From the IMG/VR virus record IMGVR_UViG_3300048910_000141: DNA of 64,000 nt. One strand, given 5' to 3'. The notes beneath the pieces were generated by a model. The model ran no database searches and was not told the DNA's origin. It saw only the letters and a program-made list of their open reading frames with translations. Position numbers and translations under genes: made by a program. Position 1 is the first letter of the stretch, and every line of letters starts with the position of its first letter. The DNA comes from a virus. Of the stretch, positions 42,637 through 59,155 are shown piece by piece.

Positions 42637-43254
42637 ATGGCGACAAAGCGCGCCAAGATTCTCGACGAGGGGCAGTTCAACAAGCTGCTCCTGTACATCG
42701 ACCAGAACTCGAACATGCCAGAGCGTGATCGACTGATCGTCATGCTCTCCTTCAAGGCTGGTCTGCGCGTCGCGGAGATCGCGAAGATCGACTTCACCGC
42801 GATGACCGATCCGGAAGGCCGGATCGCCAAGACGATCCATGTCTACTCGAACGTCGCGAAGAAGAATCGCGAGCGCGAGGTGCCCATGCACCCGATGGTG
42901 AAGAATGCCTTCGCCGCGTTCCGGAAGAAATATCCGGATGCGCCCTGCGTCGCCATCTCGTCGCAGCCTTTCCAGCACGGCCGCTCCATCTGGGACTCGC
43001 CGGCTCCGCTCATCCGCATGAGCGTCAACGCCCTCACACTATATTATCGCCGGCTGCTCATCGCGGCCGGGTTCGACGGCTGCTCGACGCACTCGGGCAG
43101 GCGGACGTTTGCGACTGACGTGTCCCGCATCCTGTCGCGGCACCACCAGTCGATCAAGGACCTCCAGAGACTGATGGGCCATGCCCGTCTGGACACAACG
43201 GAACGGTATCTGGAACCTTCCAATGACACATTCAATCTCGTGGCCGCGATCTGA
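42637..43254 (+). CDS. short tyrosine recombinase (catalytic domain only, 205 aa)
   Basis: Catalytic residues in order: GLRVAEI (R), HSGRRTF (HxxR), GHARLDTTERY (H, Y); RBS AGGAGG. Confidence 0.8.
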   Translation: MATKRAKILDEGQFNKLLLYIDQNSNMPERDRLIVMLSFKAGLRVAEIAKIDFTAMTDPEGRIAKTIHVYSNVAKKNREREVPMHPMVKNAFAAFRKKYPDAPCVAISSQPFQHGRSIWDSPAPLIRMSVNALTLYYRRLLIAAGFDGCSTHSGRRTFATDVSRILSRHHQSIKDLQRLMGHARLDTTERYLEPSNDTFNLVAAI

Positions 43255-43341: not shown

Positions 43342-43974
43342 ATGGCTACCCCGACCACCAAAACTGCACCCAAAGCTACCACCAAGCGCGTTACCGGTAA
43401 AGCAGGCTCGACCGCGCCGAAGCGGGCGCCCAAGTCCGAGCAGCAGCAGGCCGGCGGCACGACCGCGCTGGAGAAGTCGCGCGCTCACATCACTGGGCAA
43501 CCGGCGGCCGGGGGCAAGCCAGCCGGCGCAGCGCCGGAAGTAAAAGCTCCAGCGGATTCGCTGAATGCCGGTGGCGCCGCGATCGAGAACAAGGTGGCCG
43601 GCGAGGGCGCGATTGCGACCGACCAGATCATCACCGAAGCCGATGGCACCATGCGCGGCGGCACCAAGCGGGTGAAGATCGAGGTGATGGAGGTCCTGTC
43701 GCGCGGTGGTCTCAACACGCGCCGCGAGGAGGAATATCCCTTCACCGCTCTTCCGATGTCCGAAGTGATCGACGGTAAGCCCAAGGGTCCGTCGTTCTTC
43801 ATTCCGAAGAGCGATGCTCCGGACCAGAAGGTCGCCACCGCCCGCAAGCGTTATCGCGGCAAGGACGTGCAGTTCGTGACGCGCAAGCACGAGGAAGTCG
43901 TCGAGGGCGAAGAGAAGAAGGGCAAGCAGCCCGGTCTCCGCGTCTGGAAGGTTCCGGGCGGCACTCTCCGATAA
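43342..43974 (+). CDS. hypothetical protein with Lys/Ala/Pro-rich N-terminus
   Basis: 210-aa ORF followed by a strong terminator. Confidence 0.6.
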   Translation: MATPTTKTAPKATTKRVTGKAGSTAPKRAPKSEQQQAGGTTALEKSRAHITGQPAAGGKPAGAAPEVKAPADSLNAGGAAIENKVAGEGAIATDQIITEADGTMRGGTKRVKIEVMEVLSRGGLNTRREEEYPFTALPMSEVIDGKPKGPSFFIPKSDAPDQKVATARKRYRGKDVQFVTRKHEEVVEGEEKKGKQPGLRVWKVPGGTLR

Positions 43975-44719: not shown

Positions 44720-44796
44720 CAGGGTGTGGCTCAGTCCGGTAGAGCGTGCCCCTCGGAAGGGTGAGGTCGCGGGTTCGAATCCCGCCGCCCTGACCA
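44720..44796 (+). tRNA. tRNA-Pro (anticodon CGG by eye, A37)
   Basis: Acceptor CAGGGTG/CGCCCTG, loop CTCGGAA, T-loop TTCGAAT, A73, encoded CCA. Confidence 0.7.
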
Positions 44797-44886
44797 AACC
44801 GTGATCCACTGAGGTGGTTCGCAAGATTTGAAGTTGACCGACTGGTCGCTTCCGACTAGCAGCACCGCCTCACTCGATGTGGTTGG

Positions 44887-44963
44887 CGGGAAGTGGCGCA
44901 GTCTGGTAGCGCACCGGTCTCGGGGTCCGGGGGTCGCAGGTTCGAATCCTGTCTTCCCGACCA
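44887..44963 (+). tRNA. tRNA-Pro (CGG)
   Basis: Collinear with remembered E. coli proK; loop CTCGGGG; T31:T39 mismatch; CCA encoded. Confidence 0.8.
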
Positions 44964-44966
44964 CAT

Positions 44967-45043
44967 TGCAGTGTAGCTCAGCCCGGTAGAGCGGCGGATT
45001 CATGCTCCGCGCAGCGTTGGTTCAAATCCAGCCACTGCAACCA
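44967..45043 (+). tRNA. tRNA-Met or Ile2 (CAT)
   Basis: Acceptor TGCAGTG/CACTGCA, loop TTCATGC, CCA encoded. Confidence 0.7.
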
Positions 45044-45057
45044 GTTTCGTAGGTAAT

Positions 45058-45133
45058 GCGGGATTAGCTCAGGGGTAGAGCGTCGGTATGACATGCCGAG
45101 ACAGCGGTGGTTCAAATCCATCATTCCGCACCA
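45058..45133 (+). tRNA. tRNA-Val (GAC)
   Basis: Acceptor GCGGGAT/ATTCCGC, loop ATGACAT, 6-nt variable region, CCA. Confidence 0.7.
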
Positions 45134-45138
45134 CCTAC

Positions 45139-45214
45139 GCCTCGTTAGCTCAGGGGTAGAGCGTCGGTATCACACACCGAGCCAGCGGTGGTTCAAATCC
45201 ATCACGAGGCACCA
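45139..45214 (+). tRNA. tRNA-Val (CAC)
   Basis: Acceptor GCCTCGT/ACGAGGC, loop ATCACAC, CCA. Confidence 0.7.
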
Positions 45215-45563
45215 GATAGAGGCTGAAATGCCGAAACATCGGAATTAACCAGTCCGAGAAGGTTGCAGTTACGAAGAACATGCACCGGCAGGCAGGGTGG
45301 TCCCCTGACGATACCGGACTTGGTATGTAGGCTTCGTCAGCGAGCAGCGTCCGGTGCGAGAGCATCAGACCAGTGATGGTCAGGCGGCCGTGGGTCCGAG
45401 GCAGATACCCACCGAAATTTCCCGGTCCCAGCCGGCCGTCAGTCCCATGGGACGATCGCCACACAAAGGGAGGGTAAACGGTGTGACAGTACCGGCGGCG
45501 CGCAATCCCGCGATCAGCCGCTGCGGAAAGCACACGGGCCGGAGACAAGACATACCGGGCTAC
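45215..45563 (+). ncRNA. RNase P RNA specificity-domain-like RNA embedded between tRNA-Val and tRNA-Ala
   Basis: Four collinear blocks resemble remembered type-A RNase P RNA: GGCAGGGTG; GGTGCGAGAGCATCAGACCAGTGATGG; AAGGGAGGGTAAACGGTG; GCGGAAAGCACACGGGCCGGAGACAAGAC. No clear P4/P15-P18. Confidence 0.4.
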
Positions 45564-45640
45564 GGGGATGTAGCTCAGTTGGGTAGAGCGCCTGCCTTGC
45601 AAGCAGGATGTCGCGAGTTCGAACCTCGCCTTCTCCACCA
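45564..45640 (+). tRNA. tRNA-Ala (TGC)
   Basis: G3:U70 present, loop CTTGCAA, CCA. Confidence 0.8.
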
Positions 45641-45650
45641 GCCCGGTTGT

Positions 45651-45727
45651 TTGCCGTAGCCGAACAAGGTGGACGGGGCTGACTGTTAATCAGCTTATGG
45701 TAGGTTCGATGCCTACACGGCAAGCCA
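45651..45727 (+). tRNA. tRNA-Asn (GTT), atypical D arm
   Basis: Acceptor TTGCCGT/ACGGCAA, loop CTGTTAA, G73, 3-bp D stem with 11-nt loop. Confidence 0.65.
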
Positions 45728-45742
45728 GTTTCAAAGACCCGT

Positions 45743-45820
45743 CCTCGGGTAGCTCAGTTGGTAGAGCGGTGGACCGATAATCCATGTCTTGCGGTGGTTC
45801 AAACCCACCCCTGAGGACCA
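45743..45820 (+). tRNA. tRNA-Ile (GAT) with C33
   Basis: Acceptor CCTCGGG/CCTGAGG, loop CCGATAA, CCA. Confidence 0.65.
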
Positions 45821-45956
45821 TCTATTACCGTCCGTTTATCTGTCCCGGTAGGGCGCGGAGATACGGCTTGGTGAAGATGTACCGTCTATAGGCTGCGGCT
45901 GCTTCGGCCCCGTCAGCTTGGCCGGTGCACTCTAAGCGCGGTAATCACCAGCCCCG

Positions 45957-45991
45957 GAGCCCGTCACCCTAGTGGTGGCGGGCTTTGTGAT
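45957..45991 (+). terminator. terminator-like hairpin after tRNA cluster 1
   Basis: 11-bp stem AGCCCGTCACC/GGTGGCGGGCT then TTGTGATT. Confidence 0.5.
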
Positions 45992-46033
45992 TCATGCTCA
46001 GCAACATTCCGACACATTTAAGCAAAGAATGAC

Positions 46034-46062
46034 TTGACATATGCGAGTCTAGAGTTAGTGAT
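46034..46062 (+). promoter_or_regulatory. candidate promoter of the ygiB/ygiC-like module
   Basis: TTGACA then weak -10 (AGTGAT/TGATAC); GTTAGT in spacer. Confidence 0.35.
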
Positions 46063-46093
46063 ACTCATCACCCATCCAAGGGAGATTCGCAAA

Positions 46094-46621
46094 ATGGTCA
46101 AGAAGGTTATTCTCGCTGCCACCGTGGCCGGCCTCGCGCTGACTGCTTCGGCCTGTAACCGGGCTCCCGCCTATGGTTACTACAACGACGGCTACTATGC
46201 CGGCGCAAACACGCAGGTCTGCACCGATCGCGCCGGCCGCCGCGTCCCCGATATCAACTGCCAGCAGGCCTATTACGGCGGCGGCTACAATCCCTACCTC
46301 TGGTATTATGTCGGCGGCGGTTACCCCGTTCCCTATTACGGGACCGTGGTCCACGGCGGTACTTGGTCGCGTCCGTCGAACTTCCGCAGTTATGTCCGCG
46401 CACCGGCTCAAGCCAACGTGACCCGCTCGGTCGCCGTTTCGCGCGGCGGCCTCGGCTCGACCAGCCGCAGCTTCGCGCAGACCTATTCATCGCCGTCGCG
46501 CTCGTATTCGTCGAGCAGCTATTCGTCGCCGTCCCGATCCTACTCGTCGAGCAGCTATAGCTCGTCGCGTTCGTCGTTCAGCGGGGGCGGGCGCTCGTTC
46601 GGCGGGAGCGTCAGTTCGTGA
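46094..46621 (+). CDS. DUF1190 (YgiB/YjfM)-like lipoprotein with Ser/Tyr-rich repeats
   Basis: MVKKVILAATVAGLALTASAC; VSRGGLGSTSRSF resembles the YgiB C-terminal VTRGGFGES; SSPSRSYSSSSY x2. Confidence 0.55.
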   Translation: MVKKVILAATVAGLALTASACNRAPAYGYYNDGYYAGANTQVCTDRAGRRVPDINCQQAYYGGGYNPYLWYYVGGGYPVPYYGTVVHGGTWSRPSNFRSYVRAPAQANVTRSVAVSRGGLGSTSRSFAQTYSSPSRSYSSSSYSSPSRSYSSSSYSSSRSSFSGGGRSFGGSVSS

Positions 46622-47769
46622 AGCGCATCCAGACCACCCCGCGTACTGACTGGCAGGCCCGTATTCGTGATGCGGGGATGGTCTGGGCAGGCGCTGACAC
46701 CGGCGGCTGGAATGAGTCCGCCTATTACTCCTTCACCAATGAGGACATCGAGCGGATCGGCGAAGCCACCGCCGACCTCTATCGGCTGTTCATCCATTGC
46801 GGCGACGCAATGCTGGACTACCGCGACTTCTACTGGCTGCGTCAGATGGGGATGCCCGAGTGGCTGTTCCCCTATCTCAAGGCGGCGTGGGACGCGGAAC
46901 CACCGGCTCTCAATTTCGGTCGCTTCGATCTCGGGTTCGACGGTCGCAATGACCCGAAGCTGTTCGAGTTCAACTGCGACACGCCCGGCAGCCTGATCGA
47001 GGCATCGTTGGCGCAAGCGATCTGGCGCGAGGACCTGTTCCCGCGCGGTGACCAGTTCAACGGTATCAACCGGGCGCTCGTGTCGCGCTGGGCCGACCTT
47101 CGCACCTCGTTCTACGGTCGCACCTTCCACATGACGCACGTCTTCGACGAGGACGGCGAGGACACAGCCATCACCAACTATCTGGCCGAGACCGCTCGCA
47201 TGGCTGGTCTCGATCCCATGATGGTGGTGATCGACGACATCGGTCAGGACGAGGAAGGTCGCTTCGTTGACGCCGACGACATCCTCATGGACGTGGTGTA
47301 CAAGCACTACCCGTGGGAGTGGATCGTCCGTGAAGAATACGGCCGCGCCATCGTCGAGCAGTCCTCGGACCCGATGCTATGGATCGAGCCGATCTGGAAG
47401 ATGCTCTGGTCGAACAAGGGAATCCTCGTCGTCGCCAAGGCGCTGGAGCCCGAGAACCCTTACCTGCTTAACGCCAGCTTCGGGGATACCGGCGCGAAGG
47501 ACTTCGTGAAGAAGCCCATCTTCTCGCGACGTGGTGAGAACATCGAGATCGTAGATCAGCGCCAGACCAGCGCGCGGTCCACCGGCGGCTACGGTGCCGA
47601 GGGCTTCGTCTATCAGGAGAAGTTCGATCTCCCCGAGATGGCTCCCGGCATCTTCCCGGTGATCGACTCGTGGATCGTCGGCGGCGTCGCAGTCGGCATG
47701 GGTGTCCGCGAAGGCGGCCTCATCACAGACAGTTCGGCGGCTTTCGTCCCTCACATTATCGAGGGGTGA
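46618..47769 (+). CDS. glutathionylspermidine-synthase-family ATP-grasp amidoligase (YgiC/YjfC-like)
   Basis: Full-length collinear similarity to remembered E. coli YgiC (RTDW, DPKLFEFNCDTP, YPWEW, WIEPIWK..SNKGIL, KKPIFSRRGENI, FVPHIIEG). Confidence 0.8.
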   Translation: MKRIQTTPRTDWQARIRDAGMVWAGADTGGWNESAYYSFTNEDIERIGEATADLYRLFIHCGDAMLDYRDFYWLRQMGMPEWLFPYLKAAWDAEPPALNFGRFDLGFDGRNDPKLFEFNCDTPGSLIEASLAQAIWREDLFPRGDQFNGINRALVSRWADLRTSFYGRTFHMTHVFDEDGEDTAITNYLAETARMAGLDPMMVVIDDIGQDEEGRFVDADDILMDVVYKHYPWEWIVREEYGRAIVEQSSDPMLWIEPIWKMLWSNKGILVVAKALEPENPYLLNASFGDTGAKDFVKKPIFSRRGENIEIVDQRQTSARSTGGYGAEGFVYQEKFDLPEMAPGIFPVIDSWIVGGVAVGMGVREGGLITDSSAAFVPHIIEG

Positions 47770-47770
47770 G

Positions 47771-48052
47771 ATGAGCTACGACGGCAGTGTGAAGTGGCAG
47801 CATGTCGAGGCTGCTCTGGCCCGTGATGGCTTCGCGCTGACGTTCGCCTGCACCTACGGCGAGTCTCTCCCCGCCGACCTTGAGTACACCGGCCGGGAAA
47901 CCGGCTGGGAACTTCGCCGGAAGCTGAAATCCTACTGTGCCTCACATGGGATCACCAACTTCCAGATCATTCGCAACACGAGCTACCACCGCGATCTGCA
48001 CGGCAACGCCGTCTACGAGTTGTGGACTCGCCCTAACCAGATTGAGGGCTGA
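47771..48052 (+). CDS. hypothetical protein
   Basis: MSYDGSVKWQHVEAAL... Confidence 0.55.
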   Translation: MSYDGSVKWQHVEAALARDGFALTFACTYGESLPADLEYTGRETGWELRRKLKSYCASHGITNFQIIRNTSYHRDLHGNAVYELWTRPNQIEG

Positions 48053-48053
48053 C

Positions 48054-48275
48054 ATGGACGCGACACAATTCTGCTACTGGCTACAGGGCCTTTTCGAACT
48101 CGGCGAGCCGACGACGCTCGACGAAGTTCAGGTCGATCTCATCAAGCGACATCTCGCGATGGCTTTCGAGCATGACATCGACCGTCGCCCGCCAGTCGAA
48201 GAGCAGAAGGTCCTCAACAACATCCATGCTGGAACAACGCCCGCGTTTCAGCGGCCAAAAGGGATGAGGTGCTGA
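48054..48275 (+). CDS. hypothetical protein
   Basis: MDATQFCYWLQGLFELGEP... Confidence 0.55.
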   Translation: MDATQFCYWLQGLFELGEPTTLDEVQVDLIKRHLAMAFEHDIDRRPPVEEQKVLNNIHAGTTPAFQRPKGMRC

Positions 48276-48276
48276 C

Positions 48277-48507
48277 ATGGATACCGATCCCGCCACAATC
48301 GCGTCGAAGCTCAACCGTGGACAGAAGTCCACCATCCGCTGCCTCGACGATACCCCGTCCGTTCTCGGCTGCGCCGAACCAACGGCTTTACGGCTTTCGC
48401 GCGCCACAACTCGCCGGCCGGCGCTGACCTATTACACGCAAGGCGCTTCGTGGAAGATGTTCGCCCTCACGCCGATCGGACTCGAAGTTCAGGAGCATTG
48501 TTCGTGA
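48277..48507 (+). CDS. hypothetical protein
   Basis: 76-aa ORF. Confidence 0.5.
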   Translation: MDTDPATIASKLNRGQKSTIRCLDDTPSVLGCAEPTALRLSRATTRRPALTYYTQGASWKMFALTPIGLEVQEHCS

Positions 48508-48518
48508 CCAGTCCCGCC

Positions 48519-49028
48519 ATGCACTACGCCATCACGGCCCACGCCATCACGGCCCACGCCATCACGGCCCACGCCGGCCAAACCTATGGCGACAATGCGG
48601 TTCCCTACACGGAACATCTCTTCGCGGTCCGACAGGTGCTGCGGGACTTCGGGTATTTCGGCGACTATGAAGATGCCGGCGTCCTCCATGACGTGATCGA
48701 GGACACCGCCGAGAGCCGCCGCACCGTGGCCGTCAAGTTCGGAGATCGGGTCGCCACCATGGCGTGGGTCTGCACCGGCGTTGGCCCGAACCGCGTCGTT
48801 CGCAACTGGTCCATCTACGCCAAGATGAGCATGTTTCCCGAGGCCGCGCCGGTGAAGGTCGCCGATCGGATCGCGAATGTCGAGCAGGCCACACCCGGAT
48901 CGAAACACGCCAAGATGTATCTCGCCGAAGCGGGTGAGTTCCACGAACACGTCGCGCGGCTCGTGCCTCCACTGATGCAGGCCCGTCTCCTGCGGGCCTA
49001 CGACGCCGCAGCACAGGTGCCGGCATGA
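48519..49028 (+). CDS. RelA/SpoT-type HD hydrolase domain (small alarmone hydrolase-like)
   Basis: HAGQTYG..VPYTEHLFAV...LHDVIEDT...FGDRVA; alternative GTG start 48504. Confidence 0.65.
   Translation: MHYAITAHAITAHAITAHAGQTYGDNAVPYTEHLFAVRQVLRDFGYFGDYEDAGVLHDVIEDTAESRRTVAVKFGDRVATMAWVCTGVGPNRVVRNWSIYAKMSMFPEAAPVKVADRIANVEQATPGSKHAKMYLAEAGEFHEHVARLVPPLMQARLLRAYDAAAQVPA
48525..48579. repeat. 15-bp tandem repeat (3.6 copies) encoding HAITA repeats
   Basis: (T/C)ACGCCATCACGGCC x3 at the 5' end of the HD hydrolase gene. Confidence 0.85.
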
Positions 49029-49144
49029 CCCTCGGTGGCTTCCTCCTCATGCTGGTGATCGTGTTCGTCATCGTCCTGTTCGTCGCGATCGTATGCGGCG
49101 TGGACCTGTCGGACATCTTCTTCTTCCTGCCGGACGGTAACTGA
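49025..49144 (+). CDS. small membrane peptide (39 aa)
   Basis: MTLGGFLLMLVIVFVIVLFVAIVCG...; ATGA overlaps at both ends. Confidence 0.4.
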   Translation: MTLGGFLLMLVIVFVIVLFVAIVCGVDLSDIFFFLPDGN

Positions 49145-49344
49145 TGACCGCGCGCCAGTTCGTCTTCCTACTCCAGTGGGGTTGGTTGATGTTGCTCGCT
49201 GGTCTCTTCTCGCTTCTCTGCATGCCGATGTTCGCCATGCACGCGTGGATGGAGCGCAAGCCTCATCCGTGGCGCTGGGCGTGGGGTGTGGTGTCGAGCG
49301 GCGGCTTTCGGGATTTCGCGAAGGATTGGAGAAAGTACGGATGA
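49144..49344 (+). CDS. small membrane protein
   Basis: FVFLLQWGWLMLLAGLFSLLCMPMFAM. Confidence 0.5.
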   Translation: MTARQFVFLLQWGWLMLLAGLFSLLCMPMFAMHAWMERKPHPWRWAWGVVSSGGFRDFAKDWRKYG

Positions 49345-49853
49345 ACAAGCTCCAAGCCGCGACCGACACCGTCAAGGAACTGCTCTGCTGGTACGTCATC
49401 CTGCTGTTCGCAGCAGCCGGCGTCTACATGTTCGCGGAACACACATCACTCGACGACGCGCTCTATTGGGCAGCGACCACCGCGACCTCGACCGGGTATG
49501 GTGACCTGTCGCCGAAGACGATCGCCGGCCGGATTGATGCCGTGCTGCTCATGCACATCTCGATCTTCGTCATCGCGCCCATGATGATCGTCCGCCTCAT
49601 CGACAGGATGCGCGTCGATCCGAACGTCTTCACGGACGAGGAGCAGAAGGAGGTGCTGGAACACCTGCGAGCGATCCGGGACAAGGTCGGTGAGCCGGAT
49701 TACGGCAAGTCGCCCCGTCTAGCTCAGACGCTCAGGCAGCTTCGCAACACCTATTACCACATGCTGCGAGCGCCTGATTTCTGCACGAAGGCTGCTGCGG
49801 CCTCCATCAAGATGGCGATCGACCAGCTTGAGAAAGTGGCGAAGGAACAGTGA
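49341..49853 (+). CDS. two-TM potassium channel (viral Kcv/KcsA-like pore) with soluble C-terminal tail
   Basis: Selectivity filter TATSTGYGDLSP flanked by TM1 CWYVILLFAAAGVYMF and TM2 AVLLMHISIFVIAPMMIV. Confidence 0.75.
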   Translation: MNKLQAATDTVKELLCWYVILLFAAAGVYMFAEHTSLDDALYWAATTATSTGYGDLSPKTIAGRIDAVLLMHISIFVIAPMMIVRLIDRMRVDPNVFTDEEQKEVLEHLRAIRDKVGEPDYGKSPRLAQTLRQLRNTYYHMLRAPDFCTKAAAASIKMAIDQLEKVAKEQ

Positions 49854-50017
49854 TGGACGACATCGACGTGGATCAGTTCGTGGCCGAAGAGATCGAGAGC
49901 CTCCGCCGCTTCGCTGCGATGTGGAAATCCGAATCGGCGAACGACCCGGAAATCTGGCCGGCGAACATGCGGCGCGGCGAATGGGATGAGCAGTTCCGCT
50001 CGTACGAGGGCGCGTGA
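49853..50017 (+). CDS. hypothetical protein (54 aa)
   Basis: MDDIDVDQFVAEEIESLRRF...; ATGA overlaps. Confidence 0.45.
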   Translation: MDDIDVDQFVAEEIESLRRFAAMWKSESANDPEIWPANMRRGEWDEQFRSYEGA

Positions 50018-50325
50018 TGACGGACCCTATCGGCAACTGCGAATGCGGCGCACCGCTGGCTGAGACCGGTCCGCCGATCTGGGAAACCTACTGCACGGAC
50101 GAGAAGTGCAAGGTCGCTTGGAACAAACTGGTCAAGGCTATCCGCGAGGCGCCGTTGCCGCCGCTTACCGGACGATATGCCGCCGAGATCAAGCAGATCG
50201 CTGCCGAGCTTCGCCATACCTACGACCATCTGGTGAATGGCACCACCAGTGATCCCGCCGAATTGGCGAGAGGCCTGCTCGGCCCACAGATCGTGCGGCT
50301 TGAGAAGCTGACAGGAGGGAAGTGA
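50017..50325 (+). CDS. hypothetical protein
   Basis: MTDPIGNCECGAPL... Confidence 0.55.
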   Translation: MTDPIGNCECGAPLAETGPPIWETYCTDEKCKVAWNKLVKAIREAPLPPLTGRYAAEIKQIAAELRHTYDHLVNGTTSDPAELARGLLGPQIVRLEKLTGGK

Positions 50326-50957
50326 TGAAGAACAACGTCTATTACGAAGCCGTCGCAGGTGAGGTTCTCGCCTTCTGCTTCGACTACCGCGAGCGCCTGA
50401 TCGCAAAGCGCGACGTGTTTCAGGAGTACGCCAAGTCCAAGGGCGCGAAGGGCTGGGTTGGTTCATGGGGTGATTTCTTCGGCCTGCTCTATGAGCGCGA
50501 TGCCGATCGCCCTAAAGGCCTTGTTGCCGCCAAGCGCAAGACCAACGACGGCTACACTGTCTGGCGTCCCCATGGGAAGTCGCCCGAGGGTAAGGAACTT
50601 CGCCGCGAGTTCGACGACCTTGGTCGAGAGCCACGTGGTCACGAGTTCTGCAAGCGGTTCAACATCCCGGAGTCCTTGAGCTACCGGAAGTCCGAGGAGT
50701 GCTACGGCACCATGGCGCTCAACGCCATCTTCCCCGACTCGGCCTTCATCGGCTGGACCGGAGAAGGTGACGATCTTCGCTTCTGGGTCGTGCTACCGGA
50801 CGTGGATGGTGCCATCGCCGACAAGACTGCCGAGGGTTACACCTGCGATCCTGCTTCGTGGACTCTGCCGGCCGGGCTAATTCTCTCCAGCCGAGCCCGC
50901 TACGATCTCGCCGTGGCGCAGGCCAAGGTGCGGGAAGAGGAGCTTGAGGCGGCGTGA
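50325..50957 (+). CDS. hypothetical protein
   Basis: ATG after AGGAGGGA. Confidence 0.6.
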   Translation: MKNNVYYEAVAGEVLAFCFDYRERLIAKRDVFQEYAKSKGAKGWVGSWGDFFGLLYERDADRPKGLVAAKRKTNDGYTVWRPHGKSPEGKELRREFDDLGREPRGHEFCKRFNIPESLSYRKSEECYGTMALNAIFPDSAFIGWTGEGDDLRFWVVLPDVDGAIADKTAEGYTCDPASWTLPAGLILSSRARYDLAVAQAKVREEELEAA

Positions 50958-51172
50958 TCACCGACGATCAACTGGTGGCGCTGCTCATCGACGCCCACAC
51001 CACCCGGCACGATCCCGAGTTCGGATCGAGCTATCACCAGACCGACCGCTTCGATGTCGAGATCGAGAACGGGATCATCAAGGTCGGCACCGGCGGAGGT
51101 GACTTCTACGCGGTGACGCTCGATCTCGAACAGTTCCGTGCCGGCGTCGAAGCCCTGATCCGGAGCGATTGA
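50954..51172 (+). CDS. hypothetical protein
   Basis: GTGA overlap start. Confidence 0.5.
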   Translation: MITDDQLVALLIDAHTTRHDPEFGSSYHQTDRFDVEIENGIIKVGTGGGDFYAVTLDLEQFRAGVEALIRSD

Positions 51173-51366
51173 TGCTCACCTACCTAGACCGGGCTTTCTG
51201 CACCGCCAAGTGTCTCACCCTCGATTGTCCACGCAACGTGACGCCAGAGGTCGAAGCGGCTGCGGAGAAATGGTGGGGAGGCCCGGATTTCCCGATGAGG
51301 CTCATGCCGCTCAATGAGCAGTGTGATGGCTACCAGCCAGCGCCGGAGGGCATCTGCAATGCCTAA
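51172..51366 (+). CDS. hypothetical protein
   Basis: ATGA overlap start. Confidence 0.5.
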   Translation: MLTYLDRAFCTAKCLTLDCPRNVTPEVEAAAEKWWGGPDFPMRLMPLNEQCDGYQPAPEGICNA

Positions 51367-51730
51367 GGCCGGACGATTGCAGTGCAAGGACATCCCGGAT
51401 CAGCCGATCCTCCAGTTCCTACACGACCAGCCGGTAGTTGGCACCAGCGTCAGCAAGGACGGGTTACCGTTCAGGCGTTGGACCAACTGGTTCTGGGACC
51501 CGAAAGGATCATATGAGCCAAATCCTGAATACGAATACTTGCCTGACAACTCCGTTGCTCGTGCAATGCCGGAAGGCGTCTGTGACAAGCTGCGGATCGC
51601 CAAGATGGCGATGATGATCCGGCGCGGCATTGTGGATGGATGTCCGTGCGGGTGCCGAGGCGACTTTGTGATCACCAAGAAGGGCGAGGACCTGCTTGCC
51701 AAAATGAAAGAGGCCGAATGCCAGACGTAA
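51359..51730 (+). CDS. hypothetical protein
   Basis: MPKAGRLQCKDIPDQPILQF... Confidence 0.55.
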   Translation: MPKAGRLQCKDIPDQPILQFLHDQPVVGTSVSKDGLPFRRWTNWFWDPKGSYEPNPEYEYLPDNSVARAMPEGVCDKLRIAKMAMMIRRGIVDGCPCGCRGDFVITKKGEDLLAKMKEAECQT

Positions 51731-52254
51731 CGTTCACAGATGACGTGCAGGTGGTGGGCCTCCCGTTCAAACCCGGTGATTGGGCCGTCGATCCGTGCGG
51801 CGAACGTGTAGCGAAGGTCGTTCGCGTCTACCGGTGCGGCGAAGATGTGCTGCTCGATCTCTCGATCTACAGCCATAAGGGCGAACGCCTCGGCCGGACC
51901 TCTCCGGCGATGGGTGGTCCAACGAAGACCGAGCCCGCGTGTGATGCAAAGAATTGGGAGAGGATCGCCGAGCCTGACTTTCCGATCACCATAAAGTGGG
52001 TGCCCAGCAGCGACGGTAAGGTGTCGGCGCGATATTGGGCAGGGGATCGTCTGCCGCCAGCCAACTACGTCCCTCGGCCGAAGAAACCGAAGGCGAAGCC
52101 GGCGACGCGTCGCTCCGATTTCCCAGCGACGCTGGACAAGGAAGAGTACCAGCATCTGGTGGAGCTTTTCGCCGGTGCCAACGATCCGATCGCCATCTCG
52201 ATCGTGACCAAGGCGCAGGGGATGCTCGACTGGTACACGAAGATCGGACTCTAG
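51718..52254 (+). CDS. hypothetical protein
   Basis: MPDVTFTDDVQVVGLPF... Confidence 0.55.
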   Translation: MPDVTFTDDVQVVGLPFKPGDWAVDPCGERVAKVVRVYRCGEDVLLDLSIYSHKGERLGRTSPAMGGPTKTEPACDAKNWERIAEPDFPITIKWVPSSDGKVSARYWAGDRLPPANYVPRPKKPKAKPATRRSDFPATLDKEEYQHLVELFAGANDPIAISIVTKAQGMLDWYTKIGL

Positions 52255-52291
52255 CCAGACAAACTTTTTTCGTCCTTATGTCGATTTTGGG

Positions 52292-52320
52292 TTGACCTAG
52301 ACCATCCGCCTGTGTATAAG
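52292..52320 (+). promoter_or_regulatory. promoter of tRNA cluster 2
   Basis: TTGACC-N17-TATAAG, spacer ends CCTGTG. Confidence 0.6.
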
Positions 52321-52460
52321 CCCACCTCTCGACGCACTTCCGCGTCAACAGGATTATTGAGACCACCATGTTCTTCGGGACCAAACGAGATCGCCGAGAA
52401 GGCGAACGAGGTTTTAGCCTCTAACCCGGTGGTGTGTCCTGCTGCCGGTGTCGTTTTGAC

Positions 52461-52537
52461 GGATCGGTAGCTCAATAGCGTAGAGCGGTGGGTTCTTACC
52501 CCGCAGGTTGTGGGTTCGACCCCCACCCGATCCTCCA
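52461..52537 (+). tRNA. tRNA-Lys (CTT)
   Basis: Acceptor GGATCGG/CCGATCC, loop TTCTTAC, CCA. Confidence 0.8.
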
Positions 52538-52560
52538 AAACGACATCGGTAAAATTGACA

Positions 52561-52588
52561 CCCCATCGGCGACCCCGGTGGGGTTTTT
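52561..52588 (+). terminator. hairpin + T5 after tRNA-Lys(CTT)
   Basis: CCCCATCGG-CGACC-CCGGTGGGG-TTTTT. Confidence 0.5.
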
Positions 52589-52610
52589 CGCGTCCGCATT
52601 CTCGGCTCAT

Positions 52611-52685
52611 GGATCGGTAACTCAATGGGCAGAGTGGCGGACTTTTAATCCGAGGGTGTGGGTTCGAGGCCCACCCGATCTACCA
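52611..52685 (+). tRNA. tRNA-Lys (TTT)
   Basis: Acceptor GGATCGG/CCGATCT, loop CTTTTAA, CCA. Confidence 0.75.
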
Positions 52686-52701
52686 AATTTCACGGGCCTG
52701 A

Positions 52702-52774
52702 GCGGTTGTAGTCTCAGCGGTAGAGCGTCGGCTTGCCAAGTCGAAGGTCGCGGGTTCGATCCCCGCCTGCCGCT
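52702..52774 (+). tRNA. tRNA-Gly (GCC), no encoded CCA
   Basis: Loop TTGCCAA, T73, one acceptor mismatch. Confidence 0.7.
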
Positions 52775-52890
52775 CAAGCCCGTGATCACAAGTTTCCAGC
52801 GGGGTCCGCGCCAGTCCAAGACCTTCATGGGAAAGCCGATCGACCATAGGACCAGCGCAGTTGGTCGATCGTGAAATGAGATGTGTTGAT

Positions 52891-52965
52891 GCGGCCGTAG
52901 CCAAGCGGTCAAGGCAGGAGGCTTCCACCCTCCCAGCGCGGGTTCGATCCCCGCCGGCCGCTCCA
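52891..52965 (+). tRNA. tRNA-Gly (TCC)
   Basis: Acceptor GCGGCCG/CGGCCGC, loop CTTCCAC, CCA. Confidence 0.8.
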
Positions 52966-52976
52966 TCACCTCTCAC

Positions 52977-53051
52977 GGACACGTAGCTCAGTGGTAGAGT
53001 CTCGCACTGTCGATGCGAGTGTCGCGGGTTCGATCCCCGTCGTGTCCGCCA
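52977..53051 (+). tRNA. tRNA-Asp (GTC)
   Basis: Acceptor GGACACG/CGTGTCC, loop CTGTCGA, G73, CCA. Confidence 0.8.
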
Positions 53052-53057
53052 CTTCAC

Positions 53058-53133
53058 GGCCCGTTCGTCTAGCTGGACAGGACGACCGCCTCTCACGCGG
53101 TAAGCAGGGGTTCGATCCCCCTACGGGCTACCA
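53058..53133 (+). tRNA. tRNA-Glu (CTC)
   Basis: Glu-type D arm GTCTAGCTGGACAGGAC, loop CTCTCAC, CCA. Confidence 0.8.
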
Positions 53134-53154
53134 GTACCCACATGCTTTCAGCAT

Positions 53155-53228
53155 GGCCCCATAGACTAAGGGTAGGTCGCCAGTTTTTCACGCTGGAAGT
53201 CGGAGTTCAATTCTCCGTGGGGCTACCA
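53155..53228 (+). tRNA. tRNA-Glu (TTC)
   Basis: Acceptor GGCCCCA/TGGGGCT, loop TTTTCAC, CCA. Confidence 0.75.
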
Positions 53229-53270
53229 ATTTGACGGACACCGCGCTGGTCGCGATCCGTCCACGAGTAC

Positions 53271-53346
53271 GCCGCTATAGCTCAACAGGATAGAGCGCGG
53301 GATTACGAATCCCAAGGTCGAGGTTCGAGTCCTCGTAGCGGCTCCA
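53271..53346 (+). tRNA. tRNA-Arg (ACG)
   Basis: Acceptor GCCGCTA/TAGCGGC, loop TTACGAA, CCA. Confidence 0.8.
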
Positions 53347-53354
53347 GCCTCTTC

Positions 53355-53429
53355 GCCGAGGTAGCTCAGTGGTAGAGCGCCGGCTTGAAATCCCGGAAGT
53401 CGCAGGTTCAACTCCTGCTCTCGGCACCA
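53355..53429 (+). tRNA. tRNA-Phe (GAA)
   Basis: Loop TTGAAAT, C31:C39 mismatch, A73, CCA. Confidence 0.75.
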
Positions 53430-53469
53430 TCTCCAAATAGGGAAAATAACACTGCGTCAAAAATAGTTG

Positions 53470-53498
53470 TTGACACTACCACTCGACCTGTGTATAAG
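53470..53498 (+). promoter_or_regulatory. promoter of tRNA cluster 3
   Basis: TTGACA-N17-TATAAG, same CCTGTG-TATAAG-CC context as 52292. Confidence 0.6.
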
Positions 53499-53621
53499 CC
53501 GCTCCATGTTCACACAGACCCTCTTGAGCCTAACCGGCACGACGCTTTGGCATTATTGCCAACAGCATCTGAGTTCATCCCTCTAAGGGGAGTGGTCTGA
53601 CGCCCGCTCCCCTCTCCATAC

Positions 53622-53709
53622 GGAGGGTTGGCAGAGTGGGTTATTGCGGCGGTCTCGAAAACCGCTGAACCGAAAGGTTCCGTGGGTTCAAATCCCACAC
53701 CCTCCTCCA
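53622..53709 (+). tRNA. tRNA-Ser (CGA), long variable arm
   Basis: Acceptor GGAGGGT/ACCCTCC, loop CTCGAAA, variable hairpin GAACCGAAAGGTTC, CCA. Confidence 0.75.
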
Positions 53710-53718
53710 GATTTTCAG

Positions 53719-53758
53719 AGCGTCAGCAGCCTACGGGCCGCTGGCGCTTTTTCGTTTT
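53719..53758 (+). terminator. rho-independent terminator after tRNA-Ser(CGA)
   Basis: 13-bp stem AGCGTCAGCAGCC/GGCCGCTGGCGCT + TTTTTCGTTTT. Confidence 0.65.
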
Positions 53759-53848
53759 GGGTCGTCTTCCCCTCGCCGGACTGTAACCCCGGTGCCATCG
53801 AACCGAGGGGCTGTGTGGCGGGAGGTTCGAGTCCTCGACGACCCACCA
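53759..53848 (+). tRNA. atypical tRNA-like gene with Tyr (GTA) anticodon hairpin and no canonical D arm
   Basis: Perfect acceptor GGGTCGT/ACGACCC, T loop TTCGAGT, A73-CCA, hairpin CCGGA-CTGTAAC-CCCGG; only 10 nt between acceptor and anticodon arm. Confidence 0.45.
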
Positions 53849-53891
53849 TTCTATTCCAGCAGGAGTACGATCAAGAGTTCACGAGTTGCAC

Positions 53892-53979
53892 GCACTGGTG
53901 GCGGAACTGGATATACGCAGCAAGCTCAGACCTTGCCGCCCTTTGAGGATTGTGGGTTCGAGTCCCACCCGGTGTACCA
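53892..53979 (+). tRNA. tRNA-Leu (CAG)
   Basis: Type II, acceptor GCACTGG/CCGGTGT, loop CTCAGAC, CCA. Confidence 0.75.
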
Positions 53980-53990
53980 GCAACTCGAAC

Positions 53991-54075
53991 GCGGATGTGG
54001 TGAAATAGGTAAACGCAGCGGGTCGAGAGCCCGCCGGCTTCGGCCTTGTGGGTTCAAGTCCCACCTTCCGCACCA
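53991..54075 (+). tRNA. tRNA-Leu (GAG) with C33
   Basis: Type II, loop TCGAGAG, variable hairpin GGCTTCGGCC, CCA. Confidence 0.65.
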
Positions 54076-54089
54076 GTTACCTCGTGATT

Positions 54090-54163
54090 GCCGGCGTAGC
54101 TCAATGGTAGAGCTACGGCGTCGTAACCCGTAGACCTGAGTTCGATTCTCAGCGCCGGCTCCA
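54090..54163 (+). tRNA. tRNA-Thr (CGT)
   Basis: Acceptor GCCGGCG/CGCCGGC, loop GTCGTAA, C31:C39 mismatch, CCA. Confidence 0.75.
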
Positions 54164-54178
54164 CGAGTTGATCAGTGT

Positions 54179-54276
54179 CCATGGGCGTGGTGTGGCCTAA
54201 CGCAATACAGTGCGCGGCCGGATTGTGACTCCGGTGCTAGAGGGTGCAGGTCCCTCAGGTCACCCCACGCCCATGG
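54179..54276 (+). other. 98-nt structured element with a His-type (GTG) anticodon hairpin, closed by a 12-bp stem; not a canonical tRNA
   Basis: CCATGGGCGTGG ... CCACGCCCATGG; internal CCGGA-TTGTGAC-TCCGG and GAGGG-TGCAGGT-CCCTC hairpins; no GG D loop or TTCGA T loop. Confidence 0.35.
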
Positions 54277-54281
54277 ATAGT

Positions 54282-54355
54282 TGCCCCTTCGGCTAATGGT
54301 AAGCCTTCTGACTCTGAATCAGACAATCGAGGTTCGATTCCTCGCGGGGCATCCA
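54282..54355 (+). tRNA. tRNA-Gln (CTG)
   Basis: U1:A72 start, loop CTCTGAA, CCA. Confidence 0.75.
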
Positions 54356-54410
54356 GATTAGGGAGACGACGATATGGACGATACTCTCGATCGACAACCG
54401 AACGGCTTAA

Positions 54411-54484
54411 TGCCCGTTCGGCTAATGGTAAGTCGCTGCACTTTGAATGCGGAGACCTTGGTTCGATCCCAAGACGGGCATCCA
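54411..54484 (+). tRNA. tRNA-Gln (TTG)
   Basis: Acceptor TGCCCGT/ACGGGCA, loop CTTTGAA, CCA. Confidence 0.8.
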
Positions 54485-54486
54485 GA

Positions 54487-54813
54487 TCAGAGCGTCGTGT
54501 ATCCGTTATCGATGCACATGCTCATGATGCCGTAACGCAGTGTGGTGTTGTCCGCCGGGCTGGTGACATAGGCCTGATCGGCCCGAACGATGTGGCCAGC
54601 GGCGTTGCGGTAAATCGCTACCTTGAAGGTGCGGCCGTTCGCCCGTCCGCACACGACAACGGCGTCGGACTTGACCGGATCGGTTGCGATCTGCGGACGG
54701 TTGGGCAGGAAGCTGGCGATGGCGTTAGAGATCACAACCTTCTCGGTAGGCAGCAAGGGGCGCGCCTCGGCCGAGGGTGTAGCGACAAGAGCCGCGATGA
54801 GGATTAAGGACAT
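54487..54813 (-). CDS. small secreted protein embedded between tRNA genes
   Basis: Signal peptide MSLILIAALVATPSAEA; only minus-strand gene in the tRNA region. Confidence 0.5.
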   Translation of the reverse strand: MSLILIAALVATPSAEARPLLPTEKVVISNAIASFLPNRPQIATDPVKSDAVVVCGRANGRTFKVAIYRNAAGHIVRADQAYVTSPADNTTLRYGIMSMCIDNGYTTL

Positions 54814-54892
54814 GGGGGTTCTCCTATCTGGTGGAATTTCTGCCGGACCATAGGATGGACCGATAAAGGAGACAACAAGATTCAGGGTTAAC

Positions 54893-54979
54893 GGAAGGTT
54901 GGCCGAGCGGTAAGGCACCCGCTTGCTAGGCGGGCGAGACCTCAGGGTTGCGTGGGTTCGATCCCCACACCTTCCTCCA
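54893..54979 (+). tRNA. tRNA-Ser (GCT)
   Basis: Type II, acceptor GGAAGGT/ACCTTCC, loop TTGCTAG, CCA. Confidence 0.75.
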
Positions 54980-54986
54980 CCCTGTT

Positions 54987-55035
54987 TGCGTCATATATGG
55001 CGCACTAACCGGCTTTATGCGTCATATATGGCGCA
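54987..55035. promoter_or_regulatory. two copies of an 18-bp imperfect palindrome upstream of tRNA-Cys
   Basis: TGCGTCATATATGGCGCA at 54987-55004 and 55018-55035. Confidence 0.4.
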
Positions 55036-55038
55036 AAC

Positions 55039-55112
55039 GGCGCGATGGCCGAGTGGTAAGGCTCCGGATTGCAACCCCGGCATCGCCGGTTCAATTCCGG
55101 CTCGCGTCTCCA
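55039..55112 (+). tRNA. tRNA-Cys (GCA)
   Basis: Loop TTGCAAC, U73, A31:C39 mismatch, CCA. Confidence 0.75.
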
Positions 55113-55119
55113 GTTTCAT

Positions 55120-55194
55120 ATCGGTGTAGCTCAGTGGTAGAGCGGCGGCTTCCAATCCCGCGCGTCCGAGGTTCGATTCCTTGCACCGGTGCCA
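55120..55194 (+). tRNA. tRNA-Trp (CCA)
   Basis: Acceptor ATCGGTG/CACCGGT, loop TTCCAAT, G73, C31:C39 mismatch, CCA. Confidence 0.75.
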
Positions 55195-55701
55195 TTACGC
55201 TCCCAGCGGCTTGCGGAGGATGCCCCATTGGGAAATCCCCGCCTTGCGCAGCAGGGAGACGGGCTCGAAAGCAGTGATGCTGTTGAAATACACGAGATGG
55301 TCATGGGGACTGGTTCGACGCTGATTTAGTCCGAGCGTTTCCAGTATCCGCATCACCCAATCCATATGAGGAACCGGCGAGGTCAGTAGCAACACGCCGC
55401 CGGGTTTTAGCAGGGCCTTCGCCTCCTCCGTGAAATCAACATGCTCGATCACCTCGAAGGCCACGATCGCGTCAAACGACGCAGGCTCCAAACCGAGCTT
55501 TCGCCAATCGCGGATATCTCCGACGACATCGGCTGGCTCGACGATGTCATTCCCCACATAGTTGATCCATCCGTGGCTGCGAAGATACTCACCCACCCAC
55601 CGCGACCCACACCCGATCTCTAGGATGCGGGCGTCTTTTGGCAGCGGGTTCAAAAAATACTCGATCTTCTTGCGCTGTGCATATTCACTCAGGGCCGGCA
55701 T
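55195..55701 (-). CDS. class I SAM-dependent methyltransferase
   Basis: Motif I ILEIGCGS, acidic loop GNDIV, post-I AFEVIEH. Confidence 0.7.
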   Translation of the reverse strand: MPALSEYAQRKKIEYFLNPLPKDARILEIGCGSRWVGEYLRSHGWINYVGNDIVEPADVVGDIRDWRKLGLEPASFDAIVAFEVIEHVDFTEEAKALLKPGGVLLLTSPVPHMDWVMRILETLGLNQRRTSPHDHLVYFNSITAFEPVSLLRKAGISQWGILRKPLGA

Positions 55702-58336: not shown

Positions 58337-58680
58337 ACACCGAGGGCAATGCTTCCGCTGCGTTCTTGGTTAGCGCCGTTCAGGTGGGTCACTGGACCCT
58401 TAAAGGCATGACCATCCATCACATCTGTGATGGTCCGCCGCCTGAGTGGAGCGACAAGTGATTACCGATCACTGGCGATCGGGATAGATGGTAACGGGCG
58501 CCCGCTTTCTCCCCTTGGGCCGGCGCACGGTGTTTCTAGGGCTTCGAGCCGTCTATCTCGGTCGCCAGTGATGTTCACTTGCGATGCGGCAGGCCTTGCC
58601 GACCGTGGAGGTCGGTTGGTCAACACTAGGCCGGCGAGGCAGGGAGTAGTGTCCCGGCAACGAGCTTTGGTCTGCCCCAT
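58337..58680 (+). ncRNA. unassigned highly structured leader RNA
   Basis: About 25-bp long-range helix GATCACTGGCGATCGGGATAGATGG (58467-) with CCGTCTATCTCGGTCGCCAGTGATG (58549-); TCGCCAGTGAT recurs near 58678. Confidence 0.35.
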
Positions 58681-58762
58681 CGCCAGTGATGGCGAGATGA
58701 TCGTAATTCGGACGATCGAAGTTTTGGCTCGGACGCGGGGGCGGTTCCCGCCGGTTCCACCA
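58681..58762 (+). ncRNA. ssrA: tmRNA acceptor piece (3' tRNA-like part of a permuted two-piece tmRNA)
   Basis: Ends GGACGCGGG-GGCGGTT-CCCGC-CGGTTCC-A-CCA; CGGTTCC pairs 7/7 with GGGGCCG at 58853, including G3:U70; 5' boundary approximate. Confidence 0.7.
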
Positions 58763-58852
58763 CGAGCCCCGATATTACTGCCACTAGGGGCGACCTACCG
58801 CTCCGAAGAGGCGCGGAGTTATCGGCCGCGCTCTGTGTTCGGGGTTGATGAT

Positions 58853-59078
58853 GGGGCCGAAGTAGGATTCGACGGGCAAGGCGGAGGTTAGGACGCGATC
58901 TAGCATGACCGACTACGCTTCGGCGAGACAGGTCACCGTTTGTAAATGCGAACGACAACACTCCGGTGGTTGTCGCCCGCGACGAGGTTCGCCTCGCCGC
59001 GTAAGCGATAACTCTCAGCCTCCGGACTGAGAAAAGGGGCTCGGGGCCAGCCTTGCAACAGAATGGCCCCACGAGATT
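58853..59078 (+). ncRNA. ssrA: tmRNA coding piece; tag peptide ANDNTPVVVARDEVRLAA
   Basis: 5' GGGGCCGAAGTAGGATTCGACGGG (classic tmRNA 5' end); resume codon GCG at 58948, TAA at 59002-59004; downstream hairpins; 3' boundary approximate. Confidence 0.8.
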
Positions 59079-59155
59079 TGAGGTAGCTGGAGGTCGCCGG
59101 TTCGAGTCCGGTCATCCCCTGATCCGGGATGTAGCTCAGATGGTAGAGCGCCAGC
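59079..59155 (+). ncRNA. circularly permuted tRNA-like unit 1 (3' half, 4-nt linker, 5' half)
   Basis: 59086-59120 GCTGG-AGGTC-GCCGG-TTCGAGT-CCGGT-CATCCCC-T; 59125-59155 CGGGATG-TA-GCTC-AGATGGTA-GAGC-G-CCAGC; acceptor strands pair 6/7, anticodon stem 5/5. Confidence 0.45.

Follow-up and report, generated by a model that had tools for sequence, protein, structure and literature searches.

A two-helix K+ channel encoded in the tRNA array of a large soil phage, and its candidate link to a lipoprotein and a YgiC-like ligase

The locus described here raises the question of why a large soil phage should carry a gene for a potassium channel, and which of the surrounding genes, if any, belong with it. 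The window, by which we mean the whole 64,000-nucleotide stretch analysed, is part of a 164,476-base virus record (IMGVR_UViG_3300048910_000141), and the virus sequence is present in root metagenomes. It contains 26 tRNA genes in two clusters, together with a tmRNA (44720-55194 and 58670-59095), and the channel gene lies within the first of these spans. At 69-73% identity, the DNA polymerase of the phage resembles its counterparts in Erythrobacter phages XM05 and L02 and Sphingobium phage Lacusarx, so that a sphingomonad is most likely the host. The account that we favour, at a little better than an even chance, is that the phage carries a minimal copy of a bacterial envelope module, a gene set tied to membrane stress, that would consist of a lipoprotein, a peptide-polyamine ligase and a K+ channel.

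The channel assignment made in the first-pass annotation holds, as does its description of two transmembrane helices around a pore helix. The 170-residue reading frame contains TATSTGYGDLSP exactly as claimed. Residues 19-79 match Pfam Ion_trans_2 with 47.2 bits (gathering cut-off 22.5) and residues 2-117 match positions 2-117 of the 122 in the PHROG 14690 profile (E 1.7e-34), both far beyond chance. Two hydropathy maxima fall at residues 13-31 and 67-85, helices span residues 2-33, 37-48, 61-90 and 99-116 in the AlphaFold model (mean pLDDT 82), and the best fold matches to this model are Kv4, KcsA and NaK. A longer start at 49176 was ruled out, since homologues begin at the Met of 49341. RCK, cNMP-binding and S1-S4 domains were not found by Pfam and lay far below the NCBIfam cut-offs, and the Kef/RCK-, cNMP- and voltage-gated labels carried by relatives in the databases are misleading.

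The selectivity filter departs from the 'canonical T-x-G-Y-G-D' that had been assigned to it, reading S-T-G-Y-G-D instead. Both the GYGD core (residues 52-55) and an aromatic pair (Y42-W43) are present, but alignment to KvLm places Ser50 where the S4-site Thr is expected (T75 of KcsA) and Thr51 in place of Val76, and the strict T-x-x-T-x-G-Y-G signature with Thr at S4 is thus absent. The S-T-GYGD sequence is the norm of the subfamily, being found in 163 of 176 channel-family sequences (a set that includes redundant ones); throughout the family GYGD is invariant and the preceding pair is TV, TI, TT or ST. A Thr-to-Ser change at S4 was selected in Kcv as a working channel resistant to Ba2+ and amantadine (PMC2759520), so that Ser50 weakens the word 'canonical' and not the identification as a K+ channel. 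In TM2, His72 and Pro80 are invariant in a 22-row alignment and no in-helix Gly follows residue 63. It could be argued from the two departures from TVGYGD, and from the lack of an RCK domain, a voltage sensor or an obvious hinge Gly, that the filter change or the fused tail described below leaves the pore non-selective for K+ or normally shut. We consider this improbable given the functional Kcv variant, the invariance of GYGD in a family that tolerates all four preceding pairs, and purifying selection on the gene (dN/dS of 0.04-0.22 for channel pairs).

Modelling of the protein as a homotetramer gave an ipSAE of 0.76 against 0.00 for the best control, with at least 69% of contacts common to runs and a pLDDT of at least 69. 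Of the solved pairs, 20 of 30 attained this mark, as did 1 of 23 single chains, and the channel may have passed it through likeness to solved channels. Confident contacts are confined to residues 38-120. As part of the account favoured here, and with the confidence attached to that account as a whole, the protein is predicted to assemble into a KcsA-type K+ pore of four identical subunits that would serve in the inner membrane of a Sphingomonadales host. The layout of TM1, pore helix, GYGD and TM2 is common to this protein and to KcsA, NaK2K, the KvLm pore and Kcv, which the modelled tetramer would also resemble, and KcsA likewise has a C-terminal bundle. The differences from KcsA-type pores are S-T for T-V, a Thr at the Glu71 position and the His and Pro in TM2. 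Channels of eukaryotic viruses are distant (31-39% identity over short stretches).

Taken by itself, the channel adds one more ordinary member to a phage family that has already been catalogued. The PHROG 14690 channels of the Mycobacterium phages Myrna (gp260) and Phabba, Acinetobacter phage ME3, Pseudomonas phage ventosus and Streptomyces phage BillNye belong to the same two-helix family of 117-125 residues, are 29-38% identical to the window channel and share its GYGD-x-x-P and F-T-x-E-E-Q motifs, whereas the window channel is of a Sphingomonadales subtype with an S-T filter and a fused tail of 50 residues. Those of Myrna, ME3, ventosus and BillNye are already catalogued in the K+ channel sections of a 2018 paper (Greiner et al., PMC6163359), sections that do not mention a linkage to lipoprotein or ligase genes. 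The remark that such channels are rarely characterised in phages is borne out by a 2026 paper, according to which there are no functional studies of phage K+ channels (PMC13715775).

What had been called a soluble tail of roughly 90 residues is indeed a tail, but one of about 80 residues, and it is made of two parts, a family helix and a fused module. The channel family ends near residue 120, with 117 of 120 family matches having at most 147 residues and only P0001-P0003 being longer, and residues 98-120 form a conserved helix that packs with four-fold symmetry in the tetramer model. The remainder resembles a 42-residue helical phage module with the consensus core A-Q-L-R-H-A-Y ... G-L-L-G-P-x-I-E-R-L-E, which is matched by 377 clusters and occurs as stand-alone proteins of 50-80 residues or fused to many unrelated proteins. 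A hidden Markov model built from 149 outside copies of the module gave 73 bits for the tail of the related channel P0002, 68 for a reading frame downstream in the window and 8 for the window channel tail; the window channel and P0002 are identical at 85 of 90 positions over residues 1-90 and at 17 of 49 in the tail. The intact copy in the window lies 340 nt downstream of the channel, within a 102-residue reading frame that has no Pfam or PHROG family match over its full length, and in the related phage L301 the module stands alone 530 nt behind the channel. An Atlas search with the tail module gave no match. The fusion is real rather than an assembly error, because a contig assembled from a run that is not flagged as a source spans 49374-50140 with zero differences, bridging the junction, and because P0002 shares the fusion, there with an intact copy. 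A gating or regulatory domain was ruled out by the lengths within the family and by the decay of the module to 8 bits. We regard the tail as a genuine fusion but a passive one, with residues 121-170 as a passenger that has no gating role.

Which neighbours, then, belong with the channel? The earlier proposal of an accessory module with several small membrane peptides (49025-49344) is not supported. There are only two such reading frames, of 39 and 66 residues (19-residue hydropathy of 3.6 and 2.0, respectively), and they were rejected as channel partners: neither has a Pfam or PHROG match, and neither was found in three related phages in which the channel site is retained. The conserved context lies instead 1.6 kb upstream, where a GspS-like ligase adjoins a DUF1190-type lipoprotein. 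The ligase matches Pfam GSP_synth (E 1e-106) and the YgiC structure 7uk8 (E 2.6e-64), while the lipoprotein, itself without a Pfam match, was assigned by homology to the lipoproteins of Sphingomonadales operons (30-43% identity). The E. coli pairs YgiB-YgiC and YjfM-YjfC also have the lipoprotein directly upstream of the ligase; in contrast to the window, descriptions of the E. coli tolC-ygiB-ygiC operon include no channel. A TTGACA-N16/17-TA promoter-like site is found upstream of the lipoprotein here and in three related phages, and the genes from the lipoprotein down to the channel mostly abut or overlap, so that a single transcript is likely. A scan for E. coli-type promoters and terminators was at chance level, and the E. 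coli consensus scan misses the site given in Table 1. No DUF350 gene was found in the 164-kb genome, and PspA, CesT and DUF2491 were not recognised among the neighbouring genes scanned. The HD hydrolase in the intervening run is a stand-alone HD_4 protein with weak RelA/SpoT similarity and a threefold N-terminal HAITA repeat, and it is also present at the P0002 locus.

Table 1. Features of the channel locus, with positions in the window.
Feature	Position	Strand	Basis or remark
Promoter-like TTGACA-N16-TA site before the lipoprotein	46034..46061	+	Same motif in three related phages
Lipoprotein, 175 aa, lipobox Cys21, RGG-L-G motif, Ser/Gly-rich tail (YgiB/YjfM/DUF1190-like)	46094..46621	+	
YgiC/YjfC-like ATP-grasp ligase (GSP_synth), 383 aa	46618..47769	+	Pfam, YgiC structure match
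Six variable small genes between ligase and channel	47771..49344	+	Passengers, not conserved partners
HD hydrolase within the intervening run	48519-49028	+	
Two hydrophobic peptides	49025-49144, 49144-49344	+	
Two-helix K+ channel gene, 170 aa	49341..49853	+	PHROG 14690 / Ion_trans_2, AlphaFold model, fold matches
TM1, residues 13-31	49377..49433	+	Hydropathy, model
Pore helix, residues 37-48, with Tyr-Trp aromatic pair	49449..49484	+	Alignments, model
Selectivity filter S-T-G-Y-G-D, residues 50-55	49488..49505	+	Ser at S4 site, Thr at Val76 position
TM2, residues 61-90	49521..49610	+	Alignment, model
Family C-terminal helix after F-T-x-E-E-Q motif, residues 98-120	49632..49700	+	Four-helix-bundle contacts in tetramer model
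Fused, decayed copy of 42-aa helical phage module, residues 127-165	49719..49835	+	HMM, homologues
102-aa ORF, Cys-rich N-terminal half and intact 42-aa module copy (50188-50310)	50017..50325	+	

A comparison can also be made with bacteria. The closest bacterial channels are those of Sphingomonadales (45-59% identity), where the channel is the last gene of operons of the order DUF350, lipoprotein, GSP_synth, channel, and these copies sit in the chromosome among housekeeping genes. The ligase lies directly upstream of the channel in 47 of the 49 closest bacterial genome loci, most of which also have DUF350 and the lipoprotein, and in 86 of 95 over all close bacterial loci; a sample of 16 host ligase loci contained no case of a channel within 1.5 kb. 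A group of such operons has been described previously as the third group of PspA/CesT operons, with a GspS-like ATP-grasp ligase, a K+ channel, DUF350, DUF1190 and PspA, and the operons tied to PspA were proposed to couple polyamine chemistry to the state of the membrane (Ravi et al., 10.1101/2020.09.24.301986). Lipoprotein, ligase and K+ channel recur in the window phage, which differs in that the genes are carried by a phage, DUF350 is lacking and the channel has no ligand-sensing domain, being a bare pore with a helix bundle. Quick trees on few columns place the phage and prophage channels (P0003-P0006, L018) as a clade sister to the host operon channels, and place the phage ligase with other Sphingomonas ligases rather than as sister to the channel-linked host ligases. 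Capture of a modern Sphingomonas operon in one step is thus supported by neither gene, and the position of the ligase points to no particular donor or direction of transfer. The closest channels (68-69% identity) were observed in small integrase-bearing Sphingomonas elements (L010:5526-9804 and L018:5001-8547), and in L010 the channel gene is followed by an AlpA gene, with a BstA_C gene not far off.

Related phages were found by querying with the ligase instead of the channel. Four of them (L197/8, L199-201, L202-204 and L224/L300) have the order lipoprotein, ligase, one to three variable genes, channel, and in these the trio lies between tRNA-Ile and tRNA-Lys, that is, at the same site of the tRNA array. 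Their ligases form a clade with the window ligase with a support of 98 (L300 is not in the tree), while their channels are of another subtype, T-T-GYGD, and the hypothesis that the channels of this phage group all share one clade is rejected by the AU test (p=0.015, on a quick tree). The shared site and ligase clade, taken with the different channel subtype and this rejection, suggest that the channel was swapped, and the simplest reading of the sequences is that it was probably replaced in place from the phage and prophage clade to which P0003-P0006 and L018 belong. The variable genes in between turn over within this phage clade while the trio stays, although the six genes that separate ligase and channel in the window must be counted against a module. 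Two ligase genes appear broken beside an intact channel, one split across two frames in L300 (L300:3572-4721) and one interrupted by TAA in the Aeromonas phage LAh_8 (L015:5896-7104), reflecting either decay or sequence error.

The linkage is not confined to this clade. At least five other viral lineages link ligase and channel within 620 nt in several gene orders, namely channel-DUF1190-ligase in the LAh_8 group of Aeromonas phages, LemA-lipoprotein-ligase-channel in L105/6, channel-lipoprotein-ligase-DUF350-like in L107 and, on putatively viral IMG/VR contigs, DUF350-lipoprotein-ligase-lipoprotein-channel in L318, lipoprotein-ligase-channel in L316 and lipoprotein-larger channel-ligase in L327. 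The linked genes are on the same strand, 0-620 nt apart, and several of the loci have no tRNA genes. Clustering at 60% identity gave 26 viral ligase clusters, 5 with a channel no more than 620 nt away and 21 with none nearby, and 30 viral channel clusters, 6 with a ligase no more than 560 nt away and 24 with none nearby. Linkage is thus optional in both directions, and the majority of viral ligases and of viral channels stand on their own. The ligase occurs in RSL1, OC, Phosso and Motura with no channel, the channel occurs in Myrna, ME3 and Wakanda with no ligase, and phiK7A1 has both, far apart. Channel and ligase are also more than 180 kb apart in three contigs of 435-465 kb (L303, L306 and L308 with L274, L277 and L281). 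In Achromobacter phage Motura, a homospermidine synthase gene lies two genes upstream of the ligase (L193:1803-4628), a further tie to polyamines.

These counts bear on the rival explanation that we take most seriously, although we regard it as doubtful, in which the K+ channel is a working moron that acts alone and lies close to the lipoprotein and ligase only because accessory genes of host origin accumulate in the gap in the tRNA array. The 24 channel clusters that have no ligase nearby fit this explanation, as do the closest channels (L008, L010 and L018), which sit in other mobile elements where no ligase is nearby, the several unlinked phage channels that are also found among tRNAs, and the disagreement between the ligase and channel trees. 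It accounts less readily for same-strand adjacency that recurs in unrelated viruses, several of them with no tRNAs at the locus, for the same gene link in bacteria, and for a trio that persists in this clade as the intervening genes change.

The partner that matters may be the lipoprotein rather than the enzyme. In L301, which belongs to the same phage clade, a lipoprotein with a Ser/Thr/Arg tail stands beside the channel and the ligase is absent, and Myrna gp259 (L016:4446-4910), encoded directly upstream of the channel gp260, has a long Ser/Gly/Asp-rich tail like that of the window lipoprotein. A crude screen for Ser/Gly-tailed lipoproteins, weak in that it missed known cases, found them within 2 kb at 4 of 36 channel loci and at none beyond.

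We suggest the following for how an envelope module of this kind might act. The promoter-like site is of a host type, and co-transcription from it would imply early or lysogenic expression. With confidence just above even, we propose that expression early in infection or in the prophage state keeps the host membrane energised and its K+ balanced. A K+-selective pore pulls the membrane potential toward E_K, and in a bacterium that is rich in K+ inside and has little of it outside, the main effect is to bring back a potential that has collapsed, not to cause lysis. By this Nernst relation, an open K+ pore would be expected to repolarise the membrane after a breach by DNA entry or stress, and not to lyse the cell. 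The ligase would probably add a polyamine to a peptide ending in Gly/Ser, perhaps, as a guess, the tail of the lipoprotein, and DUF350 and PspA would have been left out of the phage version. YgiC is a peptide-spermidine ligase, and what the YgiC/YjfC ligases modify in nature, and to what end, is still to be learned (PMC11762307). A bolder version, which we hold to be unlikely, is a three-part device, acquired repeatedly, in which the ligase attaches spermidine to the lipoprotein tail and the polyamine or the lipoprotein gates or blocks the channel; if true, it would give the natural substrate of YgiC-type ligases and a new form of channel control by phages. The lipoprotein is expected to face the periplasm and the ligase the cytoplasm, which counts against the module as a whole, and the periplasmic placement of the lipoprotein makes it less likely that a polyaminated tail gates the channel directly.

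A steadying role also has to be weighed against exclusion and lysis. The channel, with or without the lipoprotein, could shift the membrane potential so that a second phage fails to inject or to complete its cycle, as a means of superinfection exclusion or a prophage-borne defence. The K+ channel sections of the 2018 paper report that Kcv prevents hyperinfection in chloroviruses (PMC6163359), the nearest channels are in integrase-bearing elements, one of them near a BstA_C gene, and the window phage has a tyrosine-recombinase gene. Nevertheless, no PADLOC model matched and the bacterial copies belong to chromosomal DUF350-ligase operons with housekeeping genes around them, and we give exclusion a small chance. 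Far less probable is a Kcv-like role, either as a virion-borne channel that aids DNA ejection or as a late channel that times lysis, the latter having been among the roles first suggested. Tailed phages are not known to have a membrane that could carry such a channel. The gene belongs to an accessory run in the tRNA array behind a host-type TTGACA promoter-like site, and the isolated phages most closely related to this one, XM05, L02, Lacusarx and RXM, lack the channel; in the first three the ligase has no match either. What favours a Kcv-like role is the analogy with chloroviruses and the K+ flux that accompanies entry of T4 and T5, as given in those same sections (PMC6163359). Our preference, held with modest confidence, is thus for a module that steadies the host membrane and not for a lysis timer.

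The link between K+ channel and ligase in bacteria and the phage channel family are both known; what is new is that phages repeatedly pair the channel with a lipoprotein and a ligase. No paper on a phage-borne trio was found in the literature searched, whose scope was other than subscription papers. Phages pare the operon known from bacteria down to a set of two or three genes, and the phages of this clade appear to have swapped the channel subtype at the same site, which together hint at which parts work together. The locus also offers a small system for testing two questions, the function of a phage K+ channel and the substrate and role of the YgiC/YjfC ligases.

Several further features surround the tRNA array. 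Its tRNA order is nearly identical in L197, L199, L300 and L301, and the tmRNA is flagged as permuted, with an alphaproteobacterial-type tag. A 205-residue tyrosine recombinase consisting of the catalytic domain only (42637-43254) is conserved (53-57%) just before the array in the related phages L197, L199 and L202. It is followed by a 210-residue protein (43342-43974) that has no NCBIfam match, and whose C-terminal domain recurs once or twice near the array in the same three phages. Directly after the last tRNA lies a class I methyltransferase gene on the minus strand (55195-55701).
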